Assembly (NCBI GenBank): GCA_030390025.1
Contig: CM059432.1
Location: forward strand, 94,552,001 to 94,616,000
Length of the DNA stretch: 64,000 bases
Reading direction: 5' to 3'
From: Squalus acanthias
Lineage: Eukaryota
The notes under the pieces were generated by a model. It saw only the letters and a list, made by a program, of their open reading frames with translations, did not search any database and was not told where the DNA came from. The translations under genes and the position numbers were made by a program. Every line of letters starts with the position of its first letter. Positions within the stretch are counted from its first letter, which is position 1. Shown here one piece after another: positions 5,911 to 32,359 of this stretch.

Positions 5911-6120
5911 TTTGGAACTCTCTTCCGCAAATGGCAATTGATGCTCGATCAACTGTTAATTTTAAATCTGAGGTTGATAGATTTTTGTTGACCAAAGGTA
6001 TTAAGGAAATGGAGCAAGGGCGGGTATATGGAGTTTGGTCACAGATCAGCCATGATCTCATTGAATGGCGGAACAGGCTCGAGGGGCTCAATGACCTACT
6101 CCTGTTCCTATGTTCCTATA
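5911..6120 (+). mobile_element. CR1 3' end fragment
   Basis: FKSEVDRFLLTKGIK C-terminus, 3' UTR and (TTCCTATG) tail. Confidence 0.8.
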
Positions 6121-7716: not shown

Positions 7717-8419
7717 TCAGAGGGACCTTGGTGTGCATGTACATAGATCCCTGAAGACAGCAGGACAGGTAGATAAGGTGGTTAAAAAGGCATATGGGAT
7801 ACTTGCCTTCATTAGCCGAGGCATAGAATATAAGAGCAGGGAGGTTATGATGGAGCTGTACAAAATGCTAATTAGGCCACAGCTGGAATACTGTGTGCAG
7901 TTCTGGTCACCACACTATAGGAGGGATGTAATTGCATTGGAGAGGGTGCAGAGGAGATTCACCAGGATGTTACCTGGGCTGGAGCGCTTCAGCTATGAAG
8001 AGAGACTGGACAGGCTGGGGTTGTTTTCCTTAGAGCAGAGAAGGCTGAGGGGGGACCTGATTGAGGTGTACAAAATTATGAGGGGCATAGATAGGGTAGA
8101 TAGAAAGGAACTTTTCCCCTTAGTAGAGGGGTCAATAACCAGGGGGCATAGTTTCAAGGTAAGGGGCAGGAGGTTTAGAGGGGATTTGAGGAAAACTTTT
8201 TCACCCAGAGGGTGGTTGGAATCTGGAACTCACTGCCTGAAAGGGTGGAAGAGGCAGGAACCCTCAACATTCAAGAAGCATTTAGATGAGCACTTGAAAT
8301 GCCATAGCATACAAGGCTATGGACCAAGTGCTGGAAAATGGGATTAGAATAGACAGGGCTTGATGGCCGGCGCGGACACGATGGGCCGAAGGGCCTCTTT
8401 CTGTGCTGTTTGACTCTAT
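7717..8419 (+). mobile_element. CR1 (family with GACTCTAT tail), 5'-truncated 3' fragment; tail resumes at 12815-12826
   Basis: QRDLGVHVHRSLK...LEYCVQFWSP...GYGPSAGKWD; 3' UTR hairpin GGGCCGAAGGGCCT; near-identical to 28127-28817. Confidence 0.9.
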
Positions 8420-8780
8420 GGGGGAGAAATTCACTATCGCCCCATTTGGGGCGCAACTATCAGCCGGGCGCCAAGATTGGCGCCTGGCGCTAATTATCAC
8501 CTCCAACTGCAAACTTGACTTTTATTGCCCCTGGAGGTGATTGGAGCGCTAAATCAGGCACTACACACCTGTCTTAAGGCGCAAAGGCCGAGGAGCGAGG
8601 CGCTAACTCAGAGCGCGGGCGCAGCGCAGGTGCTGTCAGTTAGCGATGGAACACAGACACACTGGCGCCGGACAGTTCTTAAAGGGGAGGGTCGATCTTG
8701 CACTCCAGCCACACCCTGCTCATTAGAGCCTTGAATCTCGGCCTGGAGAGACCTGTGCCTAAATCTTCCAGCCAAGGACT

Positions 8781-10861
8781 ATGGAGAGGGTGAGAGAACG
8801 AGCTCAGCGCTTCAGCGAGTGGGCTTTGGATGCTCTGGTTGGCGCGGTGGAGCGCAGAAGATCTATACTCTTCCCTGAGAGTGGCAGGAGGCCTTTGCCG
8901 CGCGAGTACAGAAGAGTGTGGAGGGAGGTGGCTCAGAGCGTCTCCTCCAGGAGCATGGTGCCCAGGACCCATATACAATGTCGAAATAGTTCAACGACCT
9001 CACTCGGATCGTCAGGGTGAATGGCTTTTTTTCAAAACCTCTCCATCCCTCCATCACAACCTCACTCTATGGCCAGAGGGTCTTAAAACCCCAATGCACA
9101 ACACTCATCCAACACCTATGGCCCTCTCATGAAACACACACGCACATTCCACACTTTGCATACAGTAAGGGCTATTCACCTATGGGAGGCACATCAGGCA
9201 AGACCATGGCTGCATACAGTAAGGGCTATTCACCTATGAGAGGCACATCAGGCAAGACCATGGCTGCATACAGAAAGGGCTATTCACCTATGGGAGGCAC
9301 ATCAGGCAAGACCATGGCTGTATACAGTAAGGGCTATTCATCTATGGGAGGCACATCAGGCAAGACCATGGCTGCATACAGTAAGGGCTATTCACCTATG
9401 GGAGGCACATCAGGCAAGACCATGGCTGCATACAGTAAGGGCTATTCAGCTATGGGAGGCACATCAGGCAAGACCATGGCTGCATACAGTAAGGGCTATT
9501 CACCTACGGGAGGCACATCAGGCAAGACCATGGCTGTATATTTACTCAGACGCCGTCCTTTTTCTTGCAGGCCAAGCTATCTCATAATAGGAGACAGCAG
9601 CAACGGACGGGTGGAGGGCAGCCTCAGCTGCAACCCCTCAGCGATCTTGAGGCGCGCGTCCACAGGATTGTGGCAAGCCGGGTGATCGGTCCCGTCGCCA
9701 CTGGAGACGCCGACCCCGTTCTGGACAGCAATGGTAAGGTCATCACCTTTTTGTCCTCTCTCCTTCCACTTGTCCCTCACAACACCAGACACTTTCAATC
9801 CAACTTACTAAATCGCTGCACTCATTCCTCCCTTACTGCCCCCCTGTTCTCACGCTAAAGCCACTCTTGTACCTCCCTGCTTTCAGGTGGTGATTCACCA
9901 GCTGAGGAGACGGGCCCTCAAGCTGCCAGTGGGAGTGAAGCTGCAGCCGAGGAGGAAGATGAAGGCGGAGCATCAGCGCCACCCTCTCCCGAGGAAGTCC
10001 ATGCCCACACTGGGAACACGCCTTCCCTGGAGGGGAGCAGGGGGGAAGGGTCTGATGAGGGTGAAGCTCCAGGACCCAGCGGGCTTCAGCAACGCCATGG
10101 GGGTAGGGAAGCTCGGGGGCCTTCTCCCCGGAGGGAGAGTATGCCAGCGAGTCCTACTGCACTGGACGCAGAGGAGAGCGGCTCATCGCTGAAATGAACA
10201 CCCAGGCAGGTGGACATGCACACTGAGCTCATGGGTGCAGTGGAAGGGTGCCCGAATGCATTGAATCACTGGCAAGGAGTGTGGATCACTCGCTGTAGCA
10301 CAGGCGGATGCCACGCAAATGTTTAGTGCTGCAATTCAGTCAATGGCTGCCATGAACCCATCTCTGACTGCTCTCCTGCAGTCTCAGATTGAGCCCACGC
10401 GAGCACTGACTGCTGCCATCCTCGATGGTTCGTACACATTTCCCCGGGGCTCTCACCGCGCCGCAGCAGGCCAGCAATCTGTGCTCCAGCAGATTGCTCC
10501 GGATGCTGAAGTGCTGCCCCGTGGGAGTGCCAGTGTGTCGGTCGAGCAGGGAGTTGCTGTCCTCTCTCAAGATGACAGCATTCCTGCTGCCACCACTGTC
10601 ACTTCTCCACTGCACTTGCCACCGCCTGTAGGACAGACTGCTGCCGCCCATGCAGAGTTGGTGCAGTCTGCTGCCGGGCCCTCCAGGCCCAGTGCTGGTC
10701 GAGGCCGTCCTTCAAGGGCATCTGCAGTCTCAGGTTCTGACAATCAGCAGCCTTCCACCAGCCTTGCTGCAGCCACTGAGGTCCCATTACGGAGGAACAG
10801 TAGGGTGGGAAGGGGGCAAGTGCGCAAGGGAAGGAGATCACCCTCGAAGGGCAAAAAGTAG
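8781..10861 (+). pseudogene. Harbinger B Myb/SANT DNA-binding gene; exons 8781-9016, 9571-9733, 9887-10861
   Basis: RFSEWALDALV...VWREVAQ...HIQCR motif; GT-AG junctions; 1-bp frameshift near 8985; in-frame TGA near 10195. Confidence 0.82.
9157..9540 (+). repeat. 54-bp tandem repeat, 7 full copies, in intron 1 of the Harbinger B Myb gene
   Basis: Unit TGCATACAGTAAGGGCTATTCACCTATGGGAGGCACATCAGGCAAGACCATGGC starts at 9157, 9211, 9265, 9319, 9373, 9427, 9481. Confidence 0.97.
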
Positions 10862-11160
10862 GAGGTGTGACAAAATGTTGGTCATTTTTTTATTAAAGAC
10901 CGAGGTTCGTGGTCAAACTTTTGAACATTATCTCCAGGTTATGAGAACCAGTTATGTTAATGACTGTGTTTTTGTGTTTCTTTCTATTAGTTTGTCATGA
11001 GGAAATGACACACACAGAGTTTGTGAAATAAATAAGTTTTTGTATTCAAAATGTACATGTTTGGTCTTTGGAATCATTGCTGCCTTGGCCGGCTTAGGGG
11101 TTGCGGGTTGGTTTCATTCATGTTGTTCTCAATGGCAGAAGCCATTTCCTCAGCAGGGGC

Positions 11161-12297
11161 CTAGAAGTGGCTTGCTATCAGCCGTTGACGGACGGCCCTT
11201 CCAGTTTCTACATTGTGGGCCTCCCTCCCGCCTTGGTGCTGCTGATGATCATCCTCCTCCTCCTCTGGTGGTGCTCCAAGGCCTGGTGGCATTGGCTGGG
11301 TCCTGAGGATTGCCAGGTTATGCAGCATGCAGCACACAACTATGAAGTGGGAAACTCGCTCAGGCGAGTACTGCAGGGCTCCTCCAGAATGGTCCAGACA
11401 GCGGAACCGTTGCTTGAGCACGCCGATTGTGTGCTCAACGATGTTCCTGGTAGCTTGATGGCTCGCGTTGTACCGCAGCTCAGCAGGGGTGTTGGGCGTA
11501 CGGAGCGGTGTCATCAGCCAGGTGCTCAGTGGATATCCCTTGTCCCCGAGAAGCCAACCAACTGGCTGATCCGGTGCCTGGAAAAGTTCTGCCACAGTAG
11601 TCTGGCACAGGATGAATGCATCGTGGCAGCTGCCAGGATAGTGGGCATTGACAGCGAGTATCAGCTGTCTGTGGTCACAGACCAACTGAACGTTTAAGGA
11701 ATGGAACCCCTTTCTGTTGCGGAAATCCTCGGCATTCTCATGCGGAGCACGGAAAGCCACATGCGTGCAGTCAATGGCGCCCTGCACCATGGGGAAGCCC
11801 GCTATCCTAGCAAAGCCCATTGCGCGTTCTTGCTGCTTGTCTTGGGTCATGGGGAAAGAGATGTACTCTCGTCTCCTTTTAAAGAGGGCATTTGTGACCT
11901 GACGGATGCAGCAATGCACCGCGAACTGGGAGATATTGGCGATGTCCCCAGTAGCTGATTGAAATGAGCCAGTGGCATAAAAGTTTAGAGCCACTGTGAT
12001 CTTCACTGCCACCGACAGAGACGTCCTGGACCTCAGTTGAGGCTGCAGATCTGGCTGCAGCAGGTGGCAGAGCTCAGTGACTACCTCCTTGCTGAAGCGC
12101 AGCCTTCGCAAACACTGCTCCTCAGACATATTAATATATGTGAATTGTTGGCGATATACCCTGGGAGGGTAAGGTCTCCTGTACAGAGGCCTGTTGGCCC
12201 TCCTCCGTCTGGCCATGATTGCCACTCTCTCTCTGCGTCTCTGTGTCCTCCGATTCTGGCGGCGCAGGACGACGCCCCCAATCAGTGCAGCCCCCAT
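11161..12297 (-). CDS. PIF/Harbinger DDE transposase (HARBI1-like), 378 aa, open frame
   Basis: ATG at 12297; motifs GAIDCTH, NRKGFHSLNVQ, PGSCHD, LLGDKGY, RNIVEHTIGVLKQRF, CCMLHN; DDE triad intact. Confidence 0.93.
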   Translation of the reverse strand: MGAALIGGVVLRRQNRRTQRRRERVAIMARRRRANRPLYRRPYPPRVYRQQFTYINMSEEQCLRRLRFSKEVVTELCHLLQPDLQPQLRSRTSLSVAVKITVALNFYATGSFQSATGDIANISQFAVHCCIRQVTNALFKRRREYISFPMTQDKQQERAMGFARIAGFPMVQGAIDCTHVAFRAPHENAEDFRNRKGFHSLNVQLVCDHRQLILAVNAHYPGSCHDAFILCQTTVAELFQAPDQPVGWLLGDKGYPLSTWLMTPLRTPNTPAELRYNASHQATRNIVEHTIGVLKQRFRCLDHSGGALQYSPERVSHFIVVCCMLHNLAILRTQPMPPGLGAPPEEEEDDHQQHQGGREAHNVETGRAVRQRLIASHF

Positions 12298-15079
12298 AGT
12301 CTCTTGGCAATCAAAGTTATGAAGGTCAAAAACCAAAGTACCTGCAAAGTTATGATCAGTAGCCAAAACTACCTCACACAATGTTGACTCAATGCAGAAG
12401 TCTTTCTTTCTCTCTCTCCGAATCTCTCGCTCTCTCTCTCAGAACGAGTGGTGCAAAAATGTCAACCACAGAGAAAGACAGGAAGTGGCCCCCTTTAAAT
12501 AGCGCCCCCCCCCCAGCCCCACAGCGACTGGGGAGCATTCCAGTCTTCCGGTCGTTGGTTGCGCCAGGCGGAAAGGATGGGGGCGCCACTCAATTTCCAC
12601 TCCAGGGCGCCACAAGGGCGTTGCACCCTCGTATGACATCAAGATCTGCGTGCGCAGGAGATCGCGGCGGTAAAGTTTAGCGCCGCCTGCAAAATGTCTA
12701 GTTAATTTTGCGAGCGGCGCAAACATCGCCGTGCCCGGGCGCTAGTTGCTTTGCGCCCCATTAGCGCCCTCTTAAGGCACTAACGGGAGGCGCAACGAAC
12801 TGAATTTTTCCCCCGATGACTCTATGACACCCTTCTTCTGAAGGCCGCCCCATCGAGGTCCTCATCTGAGTCGTGTGCAGCAGAACTCGCGCACGAACTT
12901 TGCCTCTGGGGTGCTAGCCCCTGAGCTACCCTATCCCCCTGGCCTTGCTGCAGCCCACTCCTGCCCAGTGCCTCACCCTGTGCAGATCCCGCATCTACAC
13001 TACCCTCTAAATTACGCGCAGTGCCAGTTTCTGAGCTAGTGTCTGCGAGTGTCAAATGCAGTGACATTGTGTCTTCTTCTCCACCCCCCTCGCTCTTCTC
13101 CATTGCCTCGGGGACATGCTGGACTGCTGCTTGTTCTTGGTTATCTGAAAGCAGAGAGGCACGAGTCGGGTTATGGTGAGGGGAAATCAAGATATGCATG
13201 CATACATCATCAGCAGCTTGTAAGTGAAAGAGATTGTGGGATGAGGGGGAAGTGGGATATGAGAAGAAGGATTAGGAATGTGTTTACCATTGTTGTCACC
13301 AAAGGCTTCAACTTCGTCCGTTGCCACAGCCTCAATGACTTCCCGTCCAATGATGTCGAGCACTCGCTCCTCCAGTTGGCTCAGGGCCTGTATGGCAACT
13401 TGCCCCCACCTGTCTGCCACTGCTCCTCACGATTGTGTGCGACCTTGGCTTGCAAGAGAAAGAGGAGTGTGTGATTGAGTGTGGTGCAATGTGTTTGGGT
13501 GATGTGCCTGCCATAGTTGAATAGCTGTCAGTGTGTGCAAGGTGTGAGATATGGGTGTGAGTGCTGCAGCAGTGGTACGGTTGTGAGTGTGAAGTGAAGC
13601 TATGTTTGTGAGGTCTGAGTGGTGATAGCTACAGATTGTTGTGAGTGCTGGAGGTGTGGTGCATTGAGCAGTGTGTGAGGCTTGTGGTGCAGATGGTGGG
13701 ATATGGCATTTGCTGAAGCCTTCACTCACCTTGACCTGCCATGTGAGGTCATTAAATTTCTTGCGGTATTGGATGGATGACCTGGGGACCACACTAGTGG
13801 CTGTCACATAATCAGATATCTCCCACCACAGCCTTCTGAGCGTATGAGCCGATGGCTTCCTGCCGGCTTGCGGGAAGACCCGCCTCCTCTCCACAGCCAT
13901 CACCAGTGCCTCGAGAGCCACGTTTGAGAAGTGTCTTGCTCTCCCCCTGTGCTGAGTCTCAGCCATCTCTTTGTAGTTGGTTGTGGTTCCGAGTGGAGTT
14001 CTCAGTGGAATGACAATGATGTGCTGTTGCATCAATGCGCCTCCCCTTTAAGTACTGGAGAAAGACTAGGCCAAACATGACTTGGAATTAGACTGCACCC
14101 GATATTAGCCCACCTGTTGAGCGGTAAGCCAATGAGCAGCAGTTTTAGCGCAGAGATCAGCACTATAATCATGTTAATGACCACCGAGCACGAATTTTGC
14201 GTGCTACCTAAACTAGTTTGACCTGGCGCAGCTTAATAGCGCTGGGCCCTGACACCGCCCATTTTCATGCCATATCCAATTTCTAGGTCTTAATGTTCTA
14301 TTAAAAGTATATCAAGTAAAACAATGGCACTGAGCTTGCCAGCAAAAGCTGACAGAAATCAGCATTGGGCCAGAAGTGGGCCAGGAAAGTCGTATTGTTT
14401 ACATTTTGTTAAGACTCCTTGTGGTCCAGGAGGAGCAGAAGGGCTCCTCCTGGCCCAACAGGGAAACCTTGGGCCTCTTCTCTCCAGGCTTTTCCTCCCT
14501 GCGATTAGCCTGGACCCCTTCCTTACTTACCTTGTCAGGGGCCGTGCCCTTGGGTTCCCGGTATGGTCGGCGTCCCGCCCAATTTATCACTTCTGCCTGC
14601 AAGGTCTTACATTATTCAGTGCCAGCTTCAGGTGGGAAACATTGTAGAGAAGTGTAAATGAGGCTTTGGAATTAAAATGACCCAGGCCTCATGCCGAGGA
14701 ATCTGTGGGGGTTTCCGTCTCGCCCGCAACCCACCCTCACGAACACTCTCCGAGTTAAAATCGGGGCTTATATTTCAGCCTTCTTTTAAATCACTTAAAC
14801 ATTTCACCTGAGGAAGACCACTGTGGTTTTATTTTTAAGTAATTAAAGTGGAAGAACAGATAATGGTGATCTGCAACTACTGTAAAATATAACATGAAAC
14901 AGATTGTATAAACAGGCACTATGAAATGGAAACAAACTGTATGTGGGGTGAATGCATGAGAGATTGCCGAGGGCAGGTCTTCTGGAGATGACTTTTTTCT
15001 CTCAAATATTATGATTTGTGTTGGGAGCCAACAGTATTACACAATGCAGGGCGAACAATATCCAAAGTGGCAAACTTAA

Positions 15080-15235
15080 TAGAGTATTTACACCCAGTAA
15101 CAATATTCTTACAGTAGTTACACTAGTGACAAGGTTCATACAGTATTTATACGCAGTGACAAAGTTCATACGTATTCACATCCACAGAGAAAACATTCAT
15201 ACAGTGTTCACACCCACAGTGACAAAGTTTATATA
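15080..15235. repeat. Degenerate ~30-bp minisatellite (CAGTGACAAAGTTCATAC core)
   Basis: Core recurs about 4-5 times with substitutions. Confidence 0.5.
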
Positions 15236-15464
15236 AAAAATACTCACATTTATATGGCATCTTTCACAAACTCAGAACATCCCAGTGTTCCATAGCCAAT
15301 TAAGTACTTTTGAATGTAGTCATTGTTGTAAAGTAGGGAAACATGGCAGCCAATTGCGTAAAGAAAAATCCCACAATCAGCAATGAGATTGAAGATGAGG
15401 TAATGGGGTAGATTTTGACTTTGTAAAACAGGTGATAGCAATCGGCAGCCCGTTTTACATCTCT

Positions 15465-15702
15465 TGTTGTGGCTGCCGCGAAGCACGAATTGAGGCCGAG
15501 TCAATATGTGGAACACATGGCTTTTAATTACATCTCTTCTGGTCAAAATGGCTGCTACAACATTTCTCTGCAAAACCCTGAGGCCACGCCCACTCCTTTT
15601 TTCATGCCTTAAAGGCAGCATGCGCCTGAAAGGCAAGGTGCCCGATTTATTGTCCACGGTCGGAAAAGTGGATTGCGCCCGTTTAGGTGGCGATCCGCCA
15701 CA
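15465..15702 (-). repeat. 3' LTR of the Gypsy element
   Basis: 238 bp; 4 mismatches seen versus 17871-18108. Confidence 0.95.
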
Positions 15703-15720
15703 CAGCTCCCCCCAGAATCC
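15703..15720 (-). promoter_or_regulatory. Polypurine tract
   Basis: GGATTCTGGGGGGAGCTG on the minus strand, directly before the 3' LTR. Confidence 0.75.
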
Positions 15721-15722
15721 GC

Positions 15723-17399
15723 TTAGGAGGTGTGGACGAGACGGTGCGGCGGTCTGATGGGCCGGCCGGAGCGGCTCTTGTAGGACACCGGTGGACGTGG
15801 AACGGCCGGGCGTGGAGCAGCCGGGTGAACTGGCTTGAGGGCAGGTCGGCCGCATGGCGGTGGACGAGCTACAGGGACCTGCTCACCGGGCTCCGAGTGT
15901 GCTGGCTTGAGTCGGTCAAGCGACACTTTTTCGGTCCTGTCGCCCACTTGCAGGGTGAAAAATTTGTCCCCAGCCTGTAGCACCTTGTAGGGCCCGTCGT
16001 ACGGGGGTTGAAGGGGTCCGCGGTGGGCGTCGTGCCAGACGAAAACGAACCGTGCCTGGTGCAGGCTTAGTGGGATGTGTGAGGTAGATTCGCCGTGTCG
16101 GGCAATGGGCACCGGGGCGAACTGTAGCGCCAGTGGGGCGAACTGTAGCGCCGGTGAGGCGAAGTCGTGGCGTTGCTGGTCGGCTGACCAGGGTGTCGTG
16201 GCAGTGGGCAGGAACTCGCCGGGTACGCGCAGCGGCTGACCGTACACGAGCTCTGCTGCCGATGCGTGGAGGTCTTCTTTACCCGCGGTGCGCAGGCCGA
16301 GGAGGACCCACGGGAGTCGGTCGGTCCAGGCGCCGTCCTGGAGGCTGGCTCGAAGAGATGCCTTCAAGGATCTGTGGAACCGCTCACACAGTCCGTTGGC
16401 TTGGGGGTGGTACGCTGTGGTGCGGTGAATGGTCACCCCGAGATTGCGTGCGACGGCGGTCCAGAGTTCAGAGGTAAATTGCGGACCTCTGTCCGACGTC
16501 ATGTCGGAGGGGACGCCGAACCGTGCGACCCAGGTGCTGACGAAGGCTCTGGCGATGTCGGCGGTGGTGGTAGAGGTCAGTGGAATTGCCTCGGGCCAGC
16601 GCGTGGTGCGGTCAACGATCGTCAGCAAGTGCGTGTGGCCTTGCGACGGCGGCAGGGGCCCGACGATGTCCACGTGGATGTGGTCGAATCTACGCGAAGG
16701 GACGGTAAACTCCTTGAGGGGTTCTTTCGTGTGTTGCTGCACCTTGGCCCGTTGGCAGGCTAGGCAGGAGTTGGCCCAAGTACGCACATCCTTGCGAAGG
16801 CCGCTCCAGACAAAGTGGTTGGCTACCAATTTGATGGATGCGCGGGCGCCGGGGTGGGAGAAGTTGTGGAGAATCTCGAATACCCGGCGGAGCCCGGACG
16901 CTGGGACGACGGGCTGAGGTTGACATAGGGATACGTCGCACTTGACCGTGACTGCGGTCGGGCCACAGGCGACGTCGGCCAGGCGTAGCCCTGGTAGGTT
17001 GGTAGGTGCGGAGAGCAGATCAGGGTCGGTAATCTGGTCTGCTGCGAGTTGAGCGTAGTCGACTGCCAGGTGTGCAGCGTGGATGGCGGGGCGGGAGAGG
17101 CAGTCGGCTACCACATTGTCTCGGCCGGAGACGTGTTGGATGTCCGTGGTGAACTCGGACACTGCCGCGAGCTGGCGCTGCTGCCTGGCGGACCAGGGGT
17201 CGGTTGTCTTTGTCATTGCGAATGTCAGGGGTTTGTGGTCGACAAACGCAGCGAAGGGGTGGCCCTCCAGCAAAAACCGAAAATGGCGGACCGCCAGGAA
17301 CAGCGCGAGGAGCTCGTGGTCGAAGGTGCTGTACTTGATCTCCGGGGGCGTAGTTGCCGGCTGAAGAAGGCAAGTGGTTGCCAGGCGCCGTCGACCCAC
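15723..17399 (-). CDS. Gypsy pol C-terminal ORF: RNase H C-half plus integrase
   Basis: YSTFDHELLA, VDHKPL, NVVADCLSR; HHCC (H.FSHPG...CLACQ); DDE (HVDIVGP, SDRGPQF, NGLCERFHR); GPY motif. Confidence 0.85.
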   Translation of the reverse strand: MGRRRLATTCLLQPATTPPEIKYSTFDHELLALFLAVRHFRFLLEGHPFAAFVDHKPLTFAMTKTTDPWSARQQRQLAAVSEFTTDIQHVSGRDNVVADCLSRPAIHAAHLAVDYAQLAADQITDPDLLSAPTNLPGLRLADVACGPTAVTVKCDVSLCQPQPVVPASGLRRVFEILHNFSHPGARASIKLVANHFVWSGLRKDVRTWANSCLACQRAKVQQHTKEPLKEFTVPSRRFDHIHVDIVGPLPPSQGHTHLLTIVDRTTRWPEAIPLTSTTTADIARAFVSTWVARFGVPSDMTSDRGPQFTSELWTAVARNLGVTIHRTTAYHPQANGLCERFHRSLKASLRASLQDGAWTDRLPWVLLGLRTAGKEDLHASAAELVYGQPLRVPGEFLPTATTPWSADQQRHDFASPALQFAPLALQFAPVPIARHGESTSHIPLSLHQARFVFVWHDAHRGPLQPPYDGPYKVLQAGDKFFTLQVGDRTEKVSLDRLKPAHSEPGEQVPVARPPPCGRPALKPVHPAAPRPAVPRPPVSYKSRSGRPIRPPHRLVHTS

Positions 17400-17830
17400 T
17401 GCTCATACACGGTGCCAACCGCGTGGTTGGAGCCGTCCGTGGTGAGCGCTACCCTAGCATTGGGCCATGGGTGCGCGAGCAGGGTGGCGTTGGCGAGCGC
17501 GGTCTTGGTGGAGTCGAAGGCGGCTGACGCGTCTGCCGTCCATTTGACCGCCATCTTGCCGCTCCTGCCCCGGAGGGCTTCATACAGGGGCCTCATGAGG
17601 GACGCCGCTTTGGGGATGAAGCGGTTGTAGAAATTCACCATCCCGAGGAACTCCTGGAGGCCTTTGATGGTGGTGGAGCTACCGAGTGATGTGACGAGGT
17701 AGTCGTACTTCGTCCCATCTGTGGTGATGAGTTGCAGCCGGAATCGTGACTCGGCTTGGAGGAACCAGGCTTCGGGTTGGTTTTCCCAAAACTCCAGCAG
17801 TTTCACGGAAACTGCGTTCGTGTCCGCCAT
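17225..17830 (-). pseudogene. Gag N-terminus fused in frame to the RT connection/RNase H N-half
   Basis: FWENQPEAWFLQAESRF (gag N-term) runs directly into LQEFLGMVNFYNRFIP...TTDGS...PLAFFSRQL; frameshift near 17350. Confidence 0.8.
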
Positions 17831-17855
17831 TGCAGTGCTCGGAATACGTTCTGAG

Positions 17856-17869
17856 CGTCGGGGTCACCA
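17856..17869 (-). promoter_or_regulatory. Primer-binding site, tRNA-Trp type
   Basis: TGGTGACCCCGACG next to the 5' LTR, complementary to the recalled vertebrate tRNA-Trp 3' end. Confidence 0.8.
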
Positions 17870-17870
17870 A

Positions 17871-18108
17871 TGTTGTGGCTGCCGCGAAGCACGAATTGAG
17901 GCCGAGTCAATATGTGGAACACATGGCTTTTAATTATATCTCTTCTGGTCAAAATGGCTGCTACAACATTTCTCTGCAAAACCCTGAGGCCACGCCCACT
18001 CCTTTTTTCATGCCTTAAAGGCAGCATGCGCCTTAAAGGCAAGGTGCCCGATTTATTGTCCACGGACGGAAAAGTGGATTGCGCCCGTTTAGGTGGTGAT
18101 CCGCCACA
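17871..18108 (-). repeat. 5' LTR of the Gypsy element
   Basis: 238 bp direct repeat of 15465-15702, followed by the PBS on the minus strand. Confidence 0.95.
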
Positions 18109-18519
18109 CTCTCCTGATTTTTATTGCTATTGAAGATGTAAAACGGGCTGCCGATTCACGATCACCCCTTTACATTATTCCACAAAGTCAAAATCTACTC
18201 CAATCTGTTTTAGTGATGTTGGTTTAGAGATATTTGTTGGCCAGGAGAGTAGGAGAACTCCCCTGCTCTTCTTCAAATAGTGCCATGGGATTTTTTATGT
18301 CCACATGAGAGGGCAGACAGGGCCTCAGTTTAACAATGCTTCTGAAAGACAGCACCTTTGGCAGTCCAGAACTCCCTCAGCACTACCCAGAGTTTCAGCC
18401 TGGGTTATGTGCTCAAGTCCCTGGAGTAGGGCTCGGAGGCGAGAGTGCTACTCTGAGCCAAGGCTGATACCAAGGCTCTACCCAGGAACCTGAGTGTATG
18501 AATCACTAGCGTTTATAAT

Positions 18520-19842: not shown

Positions 19843-22255
19843 CAAGAAACTCTCGTTTAAACGGCAACTAAATATCCGGAATTCTCTATTAACCGGCAAA
19901 ATTCATACTCCGGAAACAACTCAATAACCGGCAATGTTGCCGAGTCCGAGTCTCCCACGAACGCCGAGTTAGTCAGTGGGGGTAGTTCTCCAAAGTGCCA
20001 CTACTCGGCTTCCTGGCGCTGTTGGAAGTCCGAACACCGCAGTAACAGGAGTCTGATTCTCCCGCGCTGCCGGGAGTCTCTTCTGATTCGCCATTTTACT
20101 GTGTGTCTCCCGCGCTGCCGGTACTCTCTTCTGATTCGCCATTTTACTGTGTGTCTCTCCATCTTTATCGTGAATTATCTCCCCCATCTTGCATTATGGA
20201 ATTCCCAAAAGTTGGTCCAAGCAAAAGGAAGAGAGTGGTGTTAACTTTAAAACAGAAAATCGAGATATGCCAACGACTAGAAAGGGAAGAGAAGCGTATC
20301 AACATTATGAATGAATTCAAAATCGGTTTGTCAACAATCTACGACATCAAATGGCAGAAGGATAAGCTGCTCAAGTTTTATTCAAGCTCGGAGACATCTA
20401 AGAGTGTAGAGAAACGGCGTACGCTTCGTAAGCCTAAGCTTGAAGAGCTGGATGCCGTGCTTTATGAGTGGTTTTCTCTTAAGCGTTCAGAGGGTGTTCC
20501 ACTTTCCGGACCCATGCTAATCGAGAAAGCGAAGGATTTCTACGTAAGGATGGAGCTCACTGACAAGTGTGCTTTCTCCGAGGGAAGGCTAATGTGCTTC
20601 AAATTATGGCACGGGATACGACGACTCGATATTTCCGGGGAGAAGAAATCAGCTGATCATGACGCCGCAGAAGAATACTGCAATTATTTCAATCGGATTA
20701 TGCAGCAACATGATTTGTCGCCAGCACAGATATATAATGCCGATGAAACTGGCTTATTTTGGAGGTTTTAGCCAGAATCAACGCTTGCTGGGGCTAGTGA
20801 GGCTAATACTTCAGGTTACAAGAAAAATAAAGATCGTGTAACCGTGCTAACATGTGCAAACACTGCTGGATCACACCGGGTTAAAGTTCTTGTTATTGGG
20901 AAGTATAAAAATCCCCGTGCATTTAAAAATGTGAGGCACTTACCTGTTGAGTACAAAGCTCAAAAAAATGCTTGGATGGATAAGGAAATCTTTTCGTATT
21001 GGTTCCATCATATTTTTGTTCCATCTGTGAGGGAACATTTCCGTAAAATAGGGAAACCTGAAGATAGCAAATGCATTTTATTGCTTGATAATTGTTGAGC
21101 CCATCCGCATGAATCCGAGTTGGTTTCGGGAAATATTTTCACCATTTATTTGCCACCAAATGTAACTTCTCTCATACAACCCATGGACCAGGGCGTTATC
21201 CAAAATCTGAAGTGTCATTACAAGAAAGACTTCCTACGTAAACTGATAAACCAAGATGACAATATTCATGCATTTCAGAAGGAATACAATCTTAAAGATG
21301 CCATCTATAATGTTGCATGTTCCTGGAACTTGGTGAAAGGTCACACTCAGAGGCAAGCCTGGTGCAAATTGTGGCCTTCTGTAATGTTTGCTGAAGGTTC
21401 TTCTTCAGGAGGAGGAATTTCATGGGTTCAATGTTCGGCCCAAGAAGAGTACAATAATGGAAATGGCCGGCATGGTGAAAAATGTAGGCCCAGCAAACCC
21501 TCTACGTCACCTCAGTGAAAGGGATATCAAGCAGTGGGTTGATGCAGATAGAGAAGTTGGTGTTGTGCATATGCTAAGTGATGATGAAATAATTGAGAAT
21601 GTTTTGAATCCAAAGAAAGAAAAGGAAAGTGAGATGGAAAGTGAAGAGGATGAGATTTCTGAAGAGAAGAAGATTTCTTGGGCTAAAGCTGCAGAAGGAT
21701 TTGCTTCAATCCTCCAATTTGCTGAAAGGCAGCCTTGCTACTCTGCCCAAGAAGTAATGCACCTCCATATTCTGCATTCCACCTTTCTACAGAAAAGGCA
21801 AGAGTCCACTAAGCAAGCAGACATCCGGGACATGTTTAAGAAAGCTTCCAAAAGAGTTGAAGCAGTGGAAGTGCCTGAAGAATCTGTTGAAGTGCATGAT
21901 CCTGATGACCCAGCTGGCATGGATATTCCTGATGAACCAGCTGACTTGGAATAAGTATAGTCAACTACAGTACTGTATACAGTCGTTTATAAGTTTTGTT
22001 TTACTGTTAAGTAATTAAAGAGTTATGGATTACCCTCAACAGGCAGTACTGTACTTAATCAAGCATCTTCCACCATCCATTTAACACAACATTCTGTAGG
22101 TGAGTACCCAATTACTGTATACTGCACATTTCTTGATTTTTTTATTTTTGTTTGTTAAAAATAGCCTCGGTAGATAACCCTCTCTGTCATCCGGAATTTT
22201 TATTCAACCGGCACCACCCCGGTCCTGTCGGTGCCGGATACCACAGAGTTTCCTG
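19843..22255 (+). mobile_element. Tigger/pogo DNA transposon (2.41 kb)
   Basis: TA TSD (19841-19842, 22256-22257); imperfect TIRs CAAGAAACTCTC... / ...CAGAGTTTCCTG. Confidence 0.9.
20196..21954 (+). pseudogene. Tigger/Jerky-like transposase (CENP-B HTH + DDD domain), disrupted
   Basis: [29 protein letters not shown]; stops at 20769 and 21096; frameshift near 21410. Confidence 0.9.
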
Positions 22256-23759
22256 TATTACTTTATATGTTCAAAATCAAAGAAAATAGTTATATTCCAC
22301 ATCGTTGGTAAATATTGTAAAACTTTCTTTTTACTGTTTGGCAAAGCACGCAAGTACATAATGAGCACTCTGTAATTGCTTCAATCACTTCTGTTCGCCT
22401 CTATTCCTGAGCTATTCTTTGCTTACAGTGTAGATTGATCCAAACTGCGGATGCCTCTAAAAATGCCACTGAAGCTGCTACTTAGGTGATCCTGCTTAGA
22501 CATGTGCTTTCCCCAGTCAGCGAGGGTAATTTTGACTTTGGGCGATAGTGTAAAACGAATGATATTGAATCAGCCGCCTGTTACACATCTCTCCTGATTT
22601 TCATTTCCATTGAGGGCTCATTTCCATTGGGTCTCACCATTCAGGTGCGGAGATTGTACCCTGCGTCCCCTCCTGCTCCCAGGTTTTACACGTCATGCAG
22701 GCAGCGTACCCCTCTTTTCAACAAACTTAAATTTCAGTCAGGTGCAAATCTGGCATAAATGGCAGTATTTCTAGAACAGGTTTTGCCTCATAATCCTGTC
22801 ATTTGCAGACATACACCACTTTACGGGCAGAAGTATCTTCTGCCAGCACCCAGTTCCACTGGAATTTATTGTGTATTTTAAAATGGGTGTAACTGTGGTG
22901 TATCTGACTTACACTCCAAATTCCAGCTCCTCTGCAGGAACTACACACATTTGCCTTCAGGTAGGTCCTGGGCTGGGGGCAATTGAGATGGAGGGGGGTG
23001 GGCGGTACGATCGGAAGGGAGGCAACTGAGCGGAAATGGGCAACAGTCTTTGGCCCTGCAGTGGAGCTGGGAGGAGCAGCAGTATTGGATGATTAAGCAC
23101 ACGATTTGCACCTGAAAAATGGGCATGCGCCAATTAATTTTGAGGCCTATCACGTTTAAGTTTAAAATGTACACGTTAAATGTTTTACATATGCTTTTTA
23201 AATAACTAAACTATCAGGATTTGAACCACAGCAACAGTAGTGGAAATTCTAACTGAATATTATGATATATCAATAAATCAAGTCAATTTTTTTCTGCACT
23301 ACACATTAATAGGTTCCTGTCAAACAAGCAATGTTCTCATCAGATACAGTACAACAGAAAGAACAAAGAGTGAGATAGCATAGTTATATAGCAGGGCTAT
23401 AATGCTCTTTTCTAAGAGGCACTCATGATTAAATGTGTAACATGTCAATGGTGTTATCAAAATCTTTGTATAAAGGAATCACTTATGAGCTGCAAGAACA
23501 CTTTTTGTTGACCTACATGGGCTTACTTAAAATCCAGTCAAACACTGAAATCTGTGATTACTGCATTAAGTCAAGAGACTGATAAATGCTGCACTTCATT
23601 GTCACGTTATTTAGAATCCAAGAAATTGGTGGCAGGACCATGTAGAACACCAGGAACATGAAGTATCATCTATTTTTTGCCAATTATTAAAATGCAGGCG
23701 GCACAGACCCATAGGCAGAAATACAAAAGCAATTATCATTAAGGTTTTAAGAACACTAA

Positions 23760-24788
23760 ATGCATCCCAATAATGGATAATCAAGGGGCTATTGGGGTGG
23801 GGGGTAACTTAAAACTATCACTAGAGAGAAAGTACTAGGCAAACTAATGGGACTAAAGGTGGACAAGTCCCCTGGACTCGATGGCCTGCATCCTAGGGTC
23901 TTAAAAGAGGTGGCTGCAGAGATAGTGGATGCATTGGTTGTAATCTACCAAAATTCCCTGGATTCTGGAAAGGTCCCAGTGGACTGGAAAACTGCAAATG
24001 TAACGCCCCTATTTAAGAAAGGAGGGAGACAGAAAGCAGGCAACTATAGACCAGTTAGCCTCCAAGGCAAGTATATCCTTCCTCAGATAAGGAGACCAAA
24101 ACTGTGCACAGTACTCCAAGTGTGGTCTCACGAAAGCCCTGTACAATTGTAGTAAGACTTCCTTACTCTTGTACTCCAACCCCCTTGCAATAAAGGCCAA
24201 CATGCGATTTGCCTTCCTAATTGCTTGCTGTGCCTGCATGCTAACTCTCTGAGTTTTGTGTACGAGGACACCTAAATCTCTTGCCTTGGAGGCGGTGCAA
24301 CGAAGGTTCACTAGATTGATTCCTGGGATGAGAGGGCTGTCCTATGATGAGAGATTGTGTAGAATGGGCCTATACTCTCTGGAATTTAGTAGAATGAGAG
24401 GTGATCTCATTAAAACATACAAGATTCTGAAGGGGATTGACAGGGTAGATGCTGAGAGGTTGTTTCCCCTGGCTGGAGTGTCTAGAATTAGGGGGCATAG
24501 TCTCTGGATAAGGGGTCGGCCATTTAAGACTGAGATGAGGAGGAATTTCTTCACTCAGAGGGTTGTGAATCTTTGGAATTCTCTGCCCCAGAGGGCTGTG
24601 AATGCTGAGTCTTTGAGTATATTCAAGGCTGAGATAGATAGATTTTTGGACTCTCGGGGAATCAAGGGATACGGAGATGGGGCGGGAAAGTGGAGTTGAG
24701 GTTGATGATCAGCCATGATCTTATTGAATGGCGGAGCAGGCTCAAGGGGCCGTATGGCCTACTCCTGCTCTTATTTCTTTCTTATGTT
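23760..24788 (+). mobile_element. CR1 fragments: sense 23760-24060, antisense 24060-24280, sense 3' end with tail 24281-24788
   Basis: KSPGLDGLHPRVLKE...NYRPVSL; inverted DLGVLVH...DILALEA; ALEAVQRRF...GYGDGAGKW plus 3' UTR. Confidence 0.85.
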
Positions 24789-26928
24789 CTCTGAACACCG
24801 ACACTTAATAGTTTCTCACCATTTAAAAAATATTTTGTTTTTCTATTCTTCCTACCAAAGTGAATAACCTCAAATTTCCCTACATTATACTCCACCTGCC
24901 ACCTTATTGTCCACTCACTTAAACCTGTCTATATCCCTTTGCAGCCTCTTTGTGTCCTCCTCACAGCTTACTTTCCACCTAGCTTTGTATCGTCAGCAAA
25001 CTTGGATACATTGCACTTGGTTCCTTCATCTAGGTTATTGATAGAGATTGTAAATAGCTGAGGCCCAAGCACTGATCCTTGCGCCACCCCACTAGTTACA
25101 GCCTGCCAACCGGAAAATGACCCGGTTTATACCTACTCTTGGTTTTCTGTTTGTTAACCAATTCTCTATCCATGTTAATATATTACCCCCAACCCCAACC
25201 TTTTATGTGGCACCTTATCAAATGCCTTTTGGAAATCAAAATATACTACATCCACTGGTTCCCCTTTATCTACCCTGCTAGTTACATACTCAAAAAATTT
25301 GTTAAACATGATTTCCCTTTCATAAAACCATGTTGACTCTGCCTAATCATATTATGATTTTCTAAATGCCCTGTTACCACTTCCTTAATAGTGGATTCCA
25401 GCATTTTCCCAATGCCTGATGTCAGGCTGACTGGCCTGTAGTTCCCTGTTTTCTCTCTCCCTCCTTTCTTGAATAGCGGGGCTACATTTGCTACCTTTCA
25501 GTCCGCTGGGACCGTTCTAGAATCTCGGGAATTTTGGAAGATCACAACCAATGCATCCACTATCTCTGCATCCACCTCTTTTAGAATCCTAGGATGTAGG
25601 CCATCAGGTCCGGGGGATTTGTCGGCTTTTCGTCCCATTAGTTTCTCAAGTACTTTTTCTCTACTGATATTAATTACTTTAAGTTCCTCACTCTTAATAG
25701 CCCCTTGGTTCCCCGTTACTTTTGGTATGCTTCTTGTGTCTTCTACTGTGTTTTTGTGTCTTCTACTGTGAAGAGAGATATAAAATATTTGTTTAAAGTC
25801 TCTGCCATTTCCTTATTCCCCATTATAATTTCACCTGTCTCAGCCTCTAAGGGTCCAACGCTTACTTTTGCTACTCTTTTCCTTTTTTCATACTTGTAGA
25901 AGCTCTTACAATCTGTTTTTATATTTCTTGCTAGTTTACTCTCATTCTATTTTCTCCCTTTTTATCAATTTTTTGGTCATCCTTTGCTGGTTTCTAAACC
26001 TCTCCCAATCCTCAGGCTTACTACTATTTTTCACAATATTATAAGCCTCTTCTTTTAATCTAATACTATCCTTAACTTCTTTAGTTAGTGATGGATGGAT
26101 CACTTTTCCCGTAGAGTTTTTATTTCTTAATGGAATGTATATGCATTGAGAATTTTGGAGTATTTCTTTAAATGTTAGCCACTGCTTATCTACCATCATA
26201 CCTTTTAATCTAATTTCCCAATCTACCTTAGTTAACTCACCCCCATACCTATAACAGGCTTTATTCACGTTTAAGACTCTTGTTTCCGACTGAAGTATTT
26301 CACTCTCAAACTCAATGTGAAATTTTATCATATTATGATCACTCTTCCCCAGAGGATCCTTTACTATGGGATTACTAATTAACCCTGTCTCATTACACAA
26401 TACAAGATCTAAAATAGCCTGTTCTCTGGTTGGTTCCATGATGTATTGTTCTAGGAAACTGTCTTGAATGCATTCCATGAATTCGTCCTCCAGACTACCT
26501 TTGCCAATTTGATCTGCCCAGTCAATATGAAGATTAAAGTCCCCCATGATTATTGTAATAGCTTTGTTGCAAGCTCCTATTATTTGTTGATTAACACTCT
26601 GTGCAATGGTATAGCTACTGTTAGGGGGCCTATAAACTACTGTCACCAGTGTTTTCTCCCCCTTGTTATTTCTTATCTCCACCCATACTGATTCTACTTC
26701 CTGATCTTCCGAGCCAAGATCCTTTCTCACTACTGTCCTATGTCATCCTTTATTATCAGGGCTACCCCCCCGCCACCTTTTCCATTCAGCCTTTCTTTTT
26801 GAAATGTCAAGTACCCTGGAATATTTAGTTCCCAGCCGTGGTCACCTTGCAACCACGTCTCTGTAATGGCTATGAGATCAAAGCCATTTATCTCTATTTG
26901 TGCCACTAATTCATCTATCTTGTTACTT

Positions 26929-27376: not shown

Positions 27377-27900
27377 TGCTTTGTGCATTCAGATGAAGAG
27401 CCTTTAATTTGAACTTTTTACCATTATTCCCTGCTTTCAGCTTATTCGCTGATGCACTTTTACCATTAAACTCTCTGTCCCTTCCTGTCACACTCTGCTT
27501 GTCTTTACCCAAATCGCTACACTGCTCCATTGCCTTGACTTTTCTCTTTAGATTTCTAAATTTCCCCTCACCTGACCCCTCCCCCCACCCACCACTTTTT
27601 AGTTTAAAGCCCTATCTACAGCCCATGTTATTCGATTCACCAGGGTACTGGTCCCAGCCCGGTTTAAGTGGAGACCGTCCCAACGGAACAGCTCCCTCTT
27701 TCCCCAGTGCCCCATGAATCGAAACCCCTTTCTCCCACATCACTCTTTTAGCTCTCTAATCTGTTTGCCCCATGCCAATTTGCGCGTTGCTCAGGTAACA
27801 CTCCAGAGATTATTACTTTTGAGGTTCCGCTTTTTAATTTGGACCCTAGCTCCTCAAACTCTCTCAGCAGAATCTCATTCCTAATTCTATCCACGTCATT

Positions 27901-28817
27901 GGTAGGAGGTATGATCAGTGAGTTCGCAGATGACACGAAAATTGGTGGAGTGGTAAATAGCGAGGAGGGAAGCCTCAGGCTACAGGACGATATAGACAGG
28001 ATGGTTAGATGGGCAGAAAAGTGGCAAATGGAATTTAACCCTGAAAAGTGTGAGGTGATGCATTTTGGGAGGACGAACAAGGCAAGGGGTTACACAATGA
28101 ATGGTAGGACCCTAGGAAGGACAGAGGATCAGAGGGACCTTGGTGTGCATGTACATAGATCCCTGAAGGCAGCAGGACAGGTAGATAAGGTGGTAAAAAA
28201 GGCATATGGGATACTTGCCTTCATTAGCCGAGGCATAGAACATAAGAGCAGGGAGGTTATGATGGAGCTGTACAAAACGCTAGTTAGGCCACAGGTGGAA
28301 TACTGTGTGCAGTTCTGATCGCCACACTATAGGAAGGATGTGATTGCATTGGAGAGGGTGCAGAGGAGATTCACCAGGATGTTACCTGGGCTGGAGCGCT
28401 TCAGCTATGAAGAGAGACTGGACAGGCTGGGGTTGTTTTCCTTAGAGCAGACAAGGCTGAGGGGGGACCTGATTGAGGGGCATAGATAGGGTAGATAGAA
28501 AGGAACTTTTCCCCTTAGTAGAGGGGTCAATAACCAGGGGACATAGTTTCAAGGTAAGAGGCAGGAGGTTTAGAGGGGATTTGAGGAAAAACTTTTTCAC
28601 CCAGAGGGTGGTTGGAATCTGGAACTCACTGCCTGAAAGGGTGGTAGAGACAGGAATCTTCACAACATTCAAGAAGCATTTAGATGAGCACTTGAAACGC
28701 CATAGCATATAAGGCTACGGACCAAGTGCTGGAAAATGGGATTAGAATAGACAGGGCTTGATGGCCAGCGCAGACACGATGGGCCGAAGGGCCTCTTTCT
28801 GTGCTGTATAACTCTAT
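27901..28817 (+). mobile_element. CR1 (GACTCTAT-tail family) 3' fragment
   Basis: FADDTKIGG...RDLGVHVHRSLK; 3' UTR matches 8341-8419; tail interrupted by two MITEs. Confidence 0.9.
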
Positions 28818-29701
28818 GGGGGGAAAATTCAGTTGGTTGCGCCTCCCGTTAGCGCCTTAAGAGGGCGCTAATGGGGCGCAAAGCATCTAGCGCCCGGGCG
28901 CGGCGATGTTTGCGCCGCTCGCGAAATTAACTAGACATTTTGCGGCGGCGCTAAACACTACCGCCACGATCTCCTGCGCCGGCAGATCGTGACGTCAGTT
29001 GAGTGCGCAACGCCCCAGAGCGGATATTGAGTGGCGCCCCCTGCCTTACCGCCTGCCACTAGCAACGACAGGTTGAGGGGAGCGTTTTGCAGTCAGGAAG
29101 GGACTGGGGGAGCGCTATTTAAAGGCGACTGCTTCCTGCCTTTTATTGTTGGTGACATTTTTGAACCACGCATTCTGAGAGAGAGAGAGAGAGAGAGACT
29201 TCTGGAGATTCAACGCTGTGTGAAGGAGTTTTGGGTACTGAGCAGCACTTTGCAGGTTCATTTTGATTTGCCCTTCCTTGTATCGATTTAGTAGAGACTG
29301 TGGGGGCTGCACTCTGAGCTCTTTCCCTGGTACTCTCCATTGTTCTTTCCCGCAGATTTGATGTACAGGTCTCTCCAGGCCGAGATTCAAGGCTGCAATG
29401 AGCAGGATGTGGATGGAAAGCAAGATCAACCCTCCCCTTTAAGAACTGGCCCACGCCATTGTGTGTGTGTTCCATTGCTGACTGACATCACATGAGCTTC
29501 GCCAGCGCTCTGAGGTAGCGCCTCGCTCCTCGGCCTTTGCGCCTTAAGACAGGTGTGAAGCGCCTGATTTAGCGCTCCAATCACCTCCAGGGGCGATAAA
29601 AGTCAAGTTTGCAGTCGGAGGCGATAATTAGCGCCAGGCGCTAATCTTTGCGCCCAGCCGATAATTGCGCCCCAAATGGGGAGATACTGAATTTCTCCCC
29701 C
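28818..29701. mobile_element. Non-autonomous Harbinger B-family deletion derivative, copy 1 (884 bp)
   Basis: TIRs GGGGGGAAAATTCAG / CTGAATTTCTCCCCC; TAT TSD; both arms homologous to the ends of 8420-12814 in reverse orientation. Confidence 0.92.
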
Positions 29702-29724
29702 TATGACTCTATCTTTGACTCTAT

Positions 29725-30094
29725 GGGGGAAAAATTCAGTTGGTTGCGCCTCCCGTTAGCGCCTTAAGAGGGCGCTAATGGGGCGCAAAGCAACTAGCGC
29801 CCGGGCGTGGCGATGTTTGCGCCGCTCGCGAAATTAACTAGACATTTTGCGGCGGCACTAAACACTACCGCCACGATCTCCTGCGCTGGCAGATTGTGAC
29901 GTCAGTCGAGTGCGCAACGCCCCGGTAGCGCCCTGGAGCGGATATTGAGTGGCGCCCCCTGCCTTACCGCCTGCCGCTAGCAACGACAGGTTGAGGGGAG
30001 CGTTTTACAGTCAGGAAGGGACTGGGGGAGCGCTATTTAAAGGCGACCGCTTCCTGCCTTTTTTTGTTGGTGACATTTTTGAACCACGCATTCT

Positions 30095-30125
<31 letters not shown>

Positions 30126-30627
30126 CTGGAGAGATCCAACGCTGTGTGAAGGAGTTTTGGGTACTGAGCAGCACTTTGCAGGTACATTTTGATTTGCCCT
30201 TCCTTGTATCGATTTAGAAGAGATTGTGGGGGTTGCACTCTGAGCTCTTTCCCTGGTTCTCTCCATTGTTCTTTCCAGCAGATTTGATGTACAGGTCTCT
30301 CCAGGCCGAGATTCAAGGCTGCAATGAGCAGGATGTGGATGGAAAGCAAGATCAACCCTCCCCTTTAAGAACTGGCCGGCGCCATTGTGTCTGTGTTCCA
30401 TTGCTGACTGACATCACATGATCTTCGCCAGCGCTCTGAGTTAGCGCCTCGCTCCTCGGCCTTTGCGCCTTAAGACAGATGTGTAGCGCCTGATTTAGCG
30501 CTCCAATCACCTCCAGGGGCGATAAAAGTCAAGTTTGCAGTCGGAGGCGATAATTAGCGCCAGGCACTAATCTTTGCGCCCGGCCGAAAATTGCGCCCCA
30601 AATGGGGCGATACTGAATTTTTCCCCC
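29725..30627. mobile_element. Non-autonomous Harbinger B-family deletion derivative, copy 2 (903 bp)
   Basis: TIRs GGGGGAAAAATTCAG / CTGAATTTTTCCCCC; TAT TSD (29722-29724, 30628-30630). Confidence 0.92.
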
Positions 30628-32359
30628 TATGGTTCCTATGTGGACCACGACAACTAGATCCTCCCCCTCCGACTCCAAATTCTTCTCCAGCTGCGAGGGG
30701 ATATCCTTAACCCTGGCACTGGGCAGGCGACACAGCCTTCGGAACTCCCAGTATCTATCCCCCCTGACTATACAGTCCCCTACCACTACAGCATTCCTTT
30801 TCACTCGCCCTACTTGAATGGCCTCCTGTACCACGGTGCCGTGGTCAGTTTGCTCATCCACTCTGCAGATTTTGCCCTCATCCACACAGGTAGCAAGAAC
30901 CTCATACCTGTTGGATAAGGGCAAAGGCCGAGGCTCCTCCAGCACTGCACCTGGGGTCCCCTTACCTGCCTGAGTTGTCGTCACACCCTCCTGTCCCTGA
31001 CCACTAACCTGAACTGTACCACTACCTAACCTAAGGGGTGTGTCTGCCTCCTGGATCAAGATGTCCAGATAACTCTCCCCCCCCCCCCCCCCCGCCCCCA
31101 ATGCCCCACAATGTCTGCACCTCGGACTCCAGCTCAACAACTCTGACTTACTGCAGACGTGGTCGTCCAGGATCGCGATGCTCGCCACAAACTCCCACAT
31201 GCTGCAGTTGCGGCTCACCACCTGCACTGCCATCCGTATATAAACTTTATTTATTTATTTAATTAATTACAATTTATGTAGTTAATTAACTAGCTTATAA
31301 TTTAGTTTTTAACTAATTACTAGGTCTAGTTTAGGTTCTAGATAGATGAAATTAGCTATTTACCTGTAACACAAAGCACTACAAGTATTGGAGGCAAAAA
31401 ACAACAGTTCTTTCCCCCACTGCTCCAAAATCCCAACTTTAACACTGTTTAGAAGTACTCCGTTTGAGACTACGCTGTGCGTCAACAGATAGTGTTTACT
31501 TTTATACCCTTGGAGCCACACCCAAGTTACAAGTGCTGTCTCAGCTTTTCTCCAAGTCTGTTACTCTTCATGACATGGTGTGTCTCGTCCTTGTTATTTT
31601 CAGTCTTTTTATTTCATTCTAGTTCTTGCTTCTCTCCAAGTCTCTCACGGTCAAGGTGCCTGTCTCATCCTGTGTCCTGATTATGTTCTCATTTCTGGAG
31701 CTACCCAATGGCAACAGCAAGCAGCGTAAACACCAATTCATGCCCAATATTTAACTGATCTCCTATTTATTATCATCACAAACCTTATTGCTCTGCCAAC
31801 AATTATATCTGAGTAAAGCAACAGAAAACACATTGAGGTGAAATGAGTCTTCAACGATAGCTCTAAACGGGCAACATTGAATCAGGAACCCGTTTTACAA
31901 CCGGCACAATTTTCTTTTTCATTAACTTCAATGGAAAAGAATTTTCATTTAAATTTAAATTGAAGAGCCTTTATGTGTAGTATAAATAGAATATATTAGC
32001 TGATCCCATGGAGTTGCTGATGAATTGGGAGTTATACTGTTTTATAATTGGGATGTTTTTGCCACGCAATGCATAACATCAGGTTCACTGATTATTACAT
32101 GGTATTCTGTAATTGTTACCAGAATTTTAGGGATCAAATTCTGAAAATCTGTTCATTATTCTGAGAAGCATGAATGAGTGCTCATGTATCTAAAATAAAT
32201 TCCTGTACTATTTTTAAAGTTGAAGATACACGGCAAGATGGTATGTCAGATATAACAGTTGGAGGTAGTTATTTGCTACTGAACATTACTGTGGATTGGA
32301 GAATGGGATTTTGTTGCACTGGGCGGGTAGGCAAGAACAGTCCTCAGCAGAACTGGAGT

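Follow-up and report, generated by a model that had tools for sequence, protein, structure and literature searches.

Insertions of a PIF/Harbinger transposon in CR1 retrotransposon tails of Squalus acanthias and their relation to a palindromic target preference

This analysis concerns a PIF/Harbinger DNA transposon of Squalus acanthias (the B family), three copies of which lie in a 64-kb stretch of contig 8 (CM059432.1 of assembly GCA_030390025.1, positions 94,552,001 to 94,616,000), in the following called the window. In the window and in searches across the whole genome (3.71 Gb, rich in CR1 retrotransposons), insertions are enriched in the octamer-repeat tails of CR1 elements; the enrichment is real, but not exclusive to one CR1 family. 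The transposon probably accumulates in certain CR1 tails by its own palindromic target preference and not by seeking one CR1 family. These tails are likely favoured because, with their 8-bp period, every central triplet is flanked left and right by a good half-site. In such a scheme, a symmetric complex of transposase and Myb protein would read the target directly, MITEs (miniature inverted-repeat transposable elements) would be mobilised in trans, and a young CR1 family spreading in a coeval wave would keep supplying new near-ideal sites. Any advantage that such a "safe harbour" gave the transposon would be a by-product.

Insertions in the window and across the genome

The first insertion in the window, copy 1, is a full-length element of 4,395 bp (8420..12814, no strand assigned) with terminal inverted repeats and two convergent genes, and at least 39 other full-length copies resemble it at 96–98%. 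Its host is a 5'-truncated CR1 3' end with the start of its octamer tail (7722..8419, plus strand, 5' boundary approximate); the target duplication and the rest of the tail follow at 12815..12827 (plus strand). A second CR1 3' end with its first tail unit (27890..28817, plus strand, 5' boundary approximate; PF00078 RVT_1 with E = 2e-05, under the curated cut-off) is the host of two MITEs on the minus strand. Copy 2 (28818..29701, 884 bp) occupies the first tail site in an orientation opposite to copy 1, and copy 3 (29725..30627, 903 bp) is an independent insertion into the same CR1 tail, the two MITEs being separated by tail units at 29702..29724 (plus strand). We refer to the CR1 family ending at 8419 and 28817 as family A, to window positions 8412–8419 as the octamer, and to the element end at 8420 as the left end. 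The two host 3' ends are 95–97% alike (repeats D3 and D14), and copy 1 is inverted relative to both MITEs (inverted repeats I1 and I2). The 3-bp duplication matches at two of three bases for copy 1 and at all three for copies 2 and 3. A tandem duplication giving rise to copies 2 and 3 was rejected, since they differ at 3.0% of non-CpG sites and each is nearer to copies at other loci. A preliminary description of the window had placed the three insertions in the tail of a single CR1 family and had argued from the opposite orientations that they arose independently; the analysis bears out both statements.

Across the genome, 8,907 sequences match a 31-base left-end pattern exactly. The exact 3' end of family A occurs 8,191 times, in agreement with the earlier proposal that a retrotransposon supplies the transposon with many near-ideal landing sites. 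Junctions of an element end with the first family-A tail site number 652, a count obtained with a shorter anchor than the 8,191. The octamer directly adjoins the exact left end on its outer side in 592 cases for one orientation and in 709 for the other (reversed-pattern controls: 0), corresponding to at most 14.6% of exact left ends, which is an upper bound.

To describe where copies reside, flanks were inspected for the first 100 left-end matches on contig 1. By fuzzy tail anchors, 21 of them lie in CR1 tails. Family A accounts for 11 (7 forward, 4 reverse), two related tail types together for 9, and a further group for 1. Eight more are in probable tails, one of these being a second insertion in a family-A tail (raising family A to 12), and 71 lie outside tails; the tail share of the sample is thus 21 to 29 of 100. 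Family-A tails make up about 0.01% of the genome, so that 11–12 of 100 copies amount to an about thousand-fold enrichment. The predicted enrichment in this tail is therefore present. The proposed restriction to one specific CR1 family, however, does not hold, with 10 copies in other CR1 tails and the majority outside tails altogether. Among 39 full-length copies, 32 had both ends; five are anchored in tails, one of them in family A. These shares (11–12 of 100 MITE-end copies, 1 of 32 full-length copies in a family-A tail) differ from strict target specificity of the Dada or Pokey type, where most copies reside in one multicopy target. Some repeat-borne sites also deserve mention: two pairs of loci with family-A CR1 (L184/L186 and L194/L195) share their downstream flank, reflecting either local duplication or repeated insertion in a repeat, and four further pairs (L065/L084, L003/L092, L095/L312, L317/L337) represent repeat-borne sites apparently hit repeatedly at one position.

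Target preference and the choice of tails

The target is a palindromic preference of 15–17 bp, centred on the 3-bp duplication. The corresponding matrix was trained only on the 71 non-tail sites (134 half-sites) and is symmetrised by construction; the symmetry of the preference itself was judged from both flanks in a leave-one-out reading. The signal consists of the central triplet, mostly A/T-only, and about seven bases per side, with none beyond about +9. The strongest positions are +4 (80% one base), +6 (64%), +2 (57%) and +1 (53%), and the preference is loose. In the leave-one-out reading of 63 complete sites, enrichment stays in line with the matrix as far as 10 bits (822 observed versus 690 expected at 9–10 bits; 744 versus 1,582 above 10 bits). 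Held-out full-length sites outside tails, 26 in number (27 unanchored sites without L310, a neighbour of a sister element in a tail), have a median score of 7.15 bits, and 18 of them score at least 6 bits, a value reached by 507 of about 164,000 background positions. The extended signal together with the leave-one-out result led us to reject a bare triplet preference. A generic TWA/TAT preference had been named in advance as an outcome that would speak against the targeting idea; it was looked for and did not occur. The pseudo-palindromic character of the site, and its likeness to the extended target of zebrafish Harbinger3_DR, are likewise recovered from sites that lie outside any tail.

The top letters of the matrix agree with the Harbinger3_DR half-site, as quoted in the part of PMC3016246 available to us, at +1 to +4 and at +6 (five of six), the sixth zebrafish letter being a near-tied second letter here. 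Compared with the family-A tail, the non-tail optimum has other letters at +2 in each arm and at +6 in a single arm. An optimum that is unlike the tail at three positions, and like the zebrafish target, argues against a tuning of the element to the tail. No special boost was found for the half-site of 5 bp that is typical of the tail: its 4 occurrences among 126 non-tail halves are what the matrix would predict, although the interval is wide.

The matrix also orders the tails themselves. Four tail types score 10.8, 9.2, 6.1 and 2.8 bits and have, in the same order, 592, about 118, about 22 and about 1–2 left-end junctions, the latter three values being scaled to 146 matches from 81, 15 and 1 among the first 100 (3 more belong to a further variant). 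The lowest-scoring group is roughly ten times commoner (27–42 ends versus 3 in 301 kb). Within the window, the used sites score 10.4, 10.4 and 7.5 bits. Four other CR1 tails on the plus strand, which the preliminary description had listed as un-hit near 3030, 6120, 24788 and 39005, indeed hold no insertion, and their best sites score 5.7 bits (3014..3030, another CR1 group), 0.9 bits (6103..6119), −0.3 bits (24769..24790) and 4.6 bits (38990..39009). For the 9.2-bit tail type, the per-site rate is about 890-fold versus 594 predicted, a rough figure with six tails counted in 301 kb. This rough agreement implies that the status of being a CR1 tail alone gives no bonus.

A non-tail control is provided by a site in open reading frame 2 (ORF2) of another CR1 family, with a score of 11.5 bits. 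Exact copies of the site number 2,165 genome-wide, and junctions with a B-family end 64, the anchors differing in length. Among its first 30 copies, eight are filled by Harbinger-type elements of several families (two by the B family), and five of the eight filled copies show both ends and a clean 3-bp duplication in the locus. The non-tail hotspot is hit at a similar order of magnitude to the family-A tail. Of the CR1 copies with this site, 17 of 30 end in the un-hit tail type; in this CR1 group the body is hit where its sequence fits, and the tail is seldom hit where its sequence misfits.

The ORF2 site and the tails are also used by several further MITE families whose terminal repeats differ (L236, L243, L247, L252, L256 and L259; L036, L043, L054, L141, L156 and L169). 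They measure 640–840 bp where both ends are seen and have 3-bp duplications. A deleted copy of 325 bp (L344, from L142/L063) is bounded by a tail flank at one end and by the flank of the ORF2 control site at the other, and is likely a recombinant of two insertions.

Excess at family-A tails and independence of the insertions

Several points weigh against target preference as the full account. The matrix predicts that 0.16–0.30% of insertions fall in family-A tails, compared to the 11–12 of 100 seen, a 40–70-fold excess; the ORF2 control also exceeds its prediction, by about 4–13 times. A model-free estimate from non-tail half-sites yields an about 3,200-fold enrichment (upper bound about 21,000) versus 10,000–24,000 observed, and by this estimate the family-A tail is borderline with respect to sampling error. 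Cross-matching of two listings shows the first site filled in at least 6 of the first 100 exact family-A tails, versus 2 of 100 for the ORF2 control (p = 0.28). At 8 of 29 tail sites (two of the eight being the same locus), but at none of the 71 others, another Harbinger is found no more than 32 nt away. In addition, the 100 sampled flanks were not a random draw, the fuzzy tail anchors were picked after the flanks had been viewed, and the ORF2 control was chosen because it was hit twice in the sample. The hit rate of the family-A tail is above the simple matrix, and the excess lacks explanation.

One way to read this excess is dedicated tail targeting, in which the insertion complex would, beyond the local palindrome, respond to the periodic tail or to the CR1 3' untranslated region (UTR) next to it, and the element would be tuned to a landing pad spread by a retrotransposon. 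The larger excess at family A than at the ORF2 control, the share of left ends next to the octamer and the neighbouring insertions at tail sites would all be expected. The reading is nevertheless rather unlikely, considering that 71 of 100 copies reside outside tails, that the 9.2-bit tail type roughly fits the matrix without a bonus, and that the non-tail optimum departs from the tail on both arms. Moreover, Harbinger-type elements fill the ORF2 control site in 8 of 30 copies versus 3 of 30 unselected family-A tails, the latter holding sister-family MITEs (p = 0.18). Unlikely too is a related reading, by which this Harbinger lineage obtains a genuine bonus from the periodic tails of CR1 subfamilies spreading alongside it, over and above the palindrome that it inherited, while several Harbinger families stack in these tails; if it were correct, a retrotransposon wave would have steered a DNA-transposon wave by minting its landing pads.

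Alternatively, family-A CR1 and Harbinger might have spread together into accessible germline regions, with sequence acting only as a permissive filter. The two are of comparable age by pairwise divergence (3.9% among 26 family-A ends, 4.9% among 40 MITEs), a CR1 of another group is inserted into one MITE (L341), so that the waves overlapped, and tails with multiple hits often carry elements of different Harbinger families. The bodies of family A, however, hold few good matrix sites, no body insertions were noticed among the 100 sampled copies (without a formal count), and insertions are exact to the tail triplet. Shared time and place is therefore improbable as the cause; it can add to the explanation by target preference but not replace it. 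As CR1 family A and the MITE look coeval, newly made sites and common genomic regions may contribute to the family-A rate.

The insertions might finally have been multiplied from a few CR1-plus-MITE composites, by CR1 read-through or by segmental duplication. As a main cause this is very improbable and largely refuted. In a comparison of 142 MITEs, the nearest neighbour belongs to the same class (tail or non-tail) in 66 cases versus 71.4 ± 6.3 in shuffled data (p = 0.83), that is, tail and non-tail copies are intermixed. An origin of the tail copies in one or two events, the second outcome named beforehand as contradicting targeting, was thus looked for and not seen. Distal flanks of tail copies are unrelated, and the first tail site holds both orientations (11 versus 19 of 30). 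The genome-wide orientation tally, which the preliminary description had suggested, also yields both; its mild skew (592 versus 709, p = 0.001) could be taken in favour of composites, the two patterns, however, sampling different tail sites. Six of 30 loci in the reverse set have no near second end: two are of full-length type, two are interrupted and then resume as far as a CR1 tail, and one is rearranged. The sixth (L154/L340) has no CR1-proximal end and no family-A CR1 within 9.9 kb, which fits truncation or deletion. Units consisting of a 5'-truncated MITE plus tail therefore account for at most 1 of 30 reverse-set loci, and the suggestion that the element is occasionally carried along by CR1 read-through finds almost no support. 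The hallmarks of CR1 3' transduction, clonal passengers in a single orientation and often 5'-truncated, are not found. Both orientations and the absence of tree clustering of the tail copies imply that duplication and read-through do not explain the pattern. A tail-specialist MITE subfamily was also considered and rejected: there is no clustering, and the only two associated alignment columns (6 and 24) lie in the search pattern by which the non-tail set was selected and are sampling artefacts.

Anatomy of the element and known systems

On every feature that could be tested, the element is a PIF/Harbinger transposon. It exists as a 4.4-kb form with two genes and as an 893-bp MITE. The transposase open reading frame of copy 1 (11161..12297, minus strand, 378 aa, open) matches PF13359 DDE_Tnp_4 (E = 2e-39) and PF04827 (E = 1.4e-09), a DDE transposase of Harbinger/IS5-like type, and its nearest Atlas clusters are HARBI1-like (score 0.98). 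The frame is open in 19 of 39 other full-length copies, and at least 40 transposase genes genome-wide are 96–100% alike among the best candidates scored. The putative first exon of the Myb/SANT gene (8781..9016, plus strand; PF13873, E = 4.3e-06) is frameshifted in copy 1, where one base near 8984 is missing in comparison to 32 of 32 other copies; exon 1 is open in 18 of 33 full-length copies, its boundary having been set by eye. A 54-bp tandem array of seven units in copy 1 (9157..9540, no strand assigned), likely intronic, ranges between 1 and 7 units in a set of 33 full-length copies (including L302–L339). Terminal inverted repeats are present in the copies examined, and 65 of 87 sampled copies having both ends show a perfect 3-bp target duplication, 13 of the 100 having been set aside for want of a second end at 800–950 nt. 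The extended palindromic target preference is likewise a feature of the superfamily. The MITE consensus matches copy 1 at 87% over its first 388 bases and at 78% over its last approximately 530 bases, and the MITE is therefore derived from a close relative, not from the exact lineage of copy 1.

The class of mechanism is already known, and the crowding of Harbinger into CR1 tails is a variant of a known Harbinger trait. As far as the accessible parts of the cited sources go, Harbinger3_DR of zebrafish has a palindromic target of about 15 bp (PMC3016246) and shares with our element the two genes (DDE transposase and Myb-like) and the 3-bp duplication. Here, however, the central triplet differs, the preference is loose, MITEs number in the thousands, and between a fifth and somewhat more than a quarter of the sample sits in CR1 tails. 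Extended target preferences, of 9 bp for plant and 15 bp for vertebrate elements, are described along with MITE amplification for the superfamily as a whole (PMC2836001), including PIF/Pong elements with Tourist MITEs such as mPing; our case differs in the vertebrate host, the longer target and the size of the MITE. Dada, Pokey and the microsatellite-targeting CryptonV also concentrate in multicopy sequences, Dada by recognition of primary sequence (PMC8869645), but are described as target-specific, whereas here most copies lie outside tails and the transposase is of Harbinger type. The conserved hairpin and terminal octamer repeat of CR1 3' UTRs are themselves known (PMC4316615); in the literature searched, which covered part of the sources outside Repbase, Dfam and subscription papers, we found no report of the octamer tail as a DNA-transposon hotspot or of Harbinger insertion in CR1 tails.

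Once a retrotransposon has spread some ten thousand copies of a matching sequence, an ordinary Harbinger preference thus comes close to site specificity in practice. In the consulted part of PMC2836001, it is posed as an open question which of the Harbinger proteins recognises the target; the natural insertions in their thousands, the several related families with common sites and the numerous copies whose frames are open should ease an answer. At hotspots of this kind, separate copies of a repeat also acquire insertions in parallel at one and the same position, and both repeat annotation and presence/absence markers can be misled by this.

The CR1 fragment that bears copy 1 is itself flanked by older Harbinger-type fragments (window ~6570–14050, with a Myb open reading frame at 13427–14047, PF13873), forming a three-level nest. 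At another locus (L229, contig 1, 143.6 Mb), a family-A CR1 is inserted in that older Harbinger at almost exactly the position (a few bases apart) of the one at window 12825ff, which suggests a CR1 hotspot or a shared ancestor. A further Myb open reading frame is found at 44421–44897, and window positions 15723–17863 hold long open reading frames that we take to resemble Gypsy-type RNase H and integrase.

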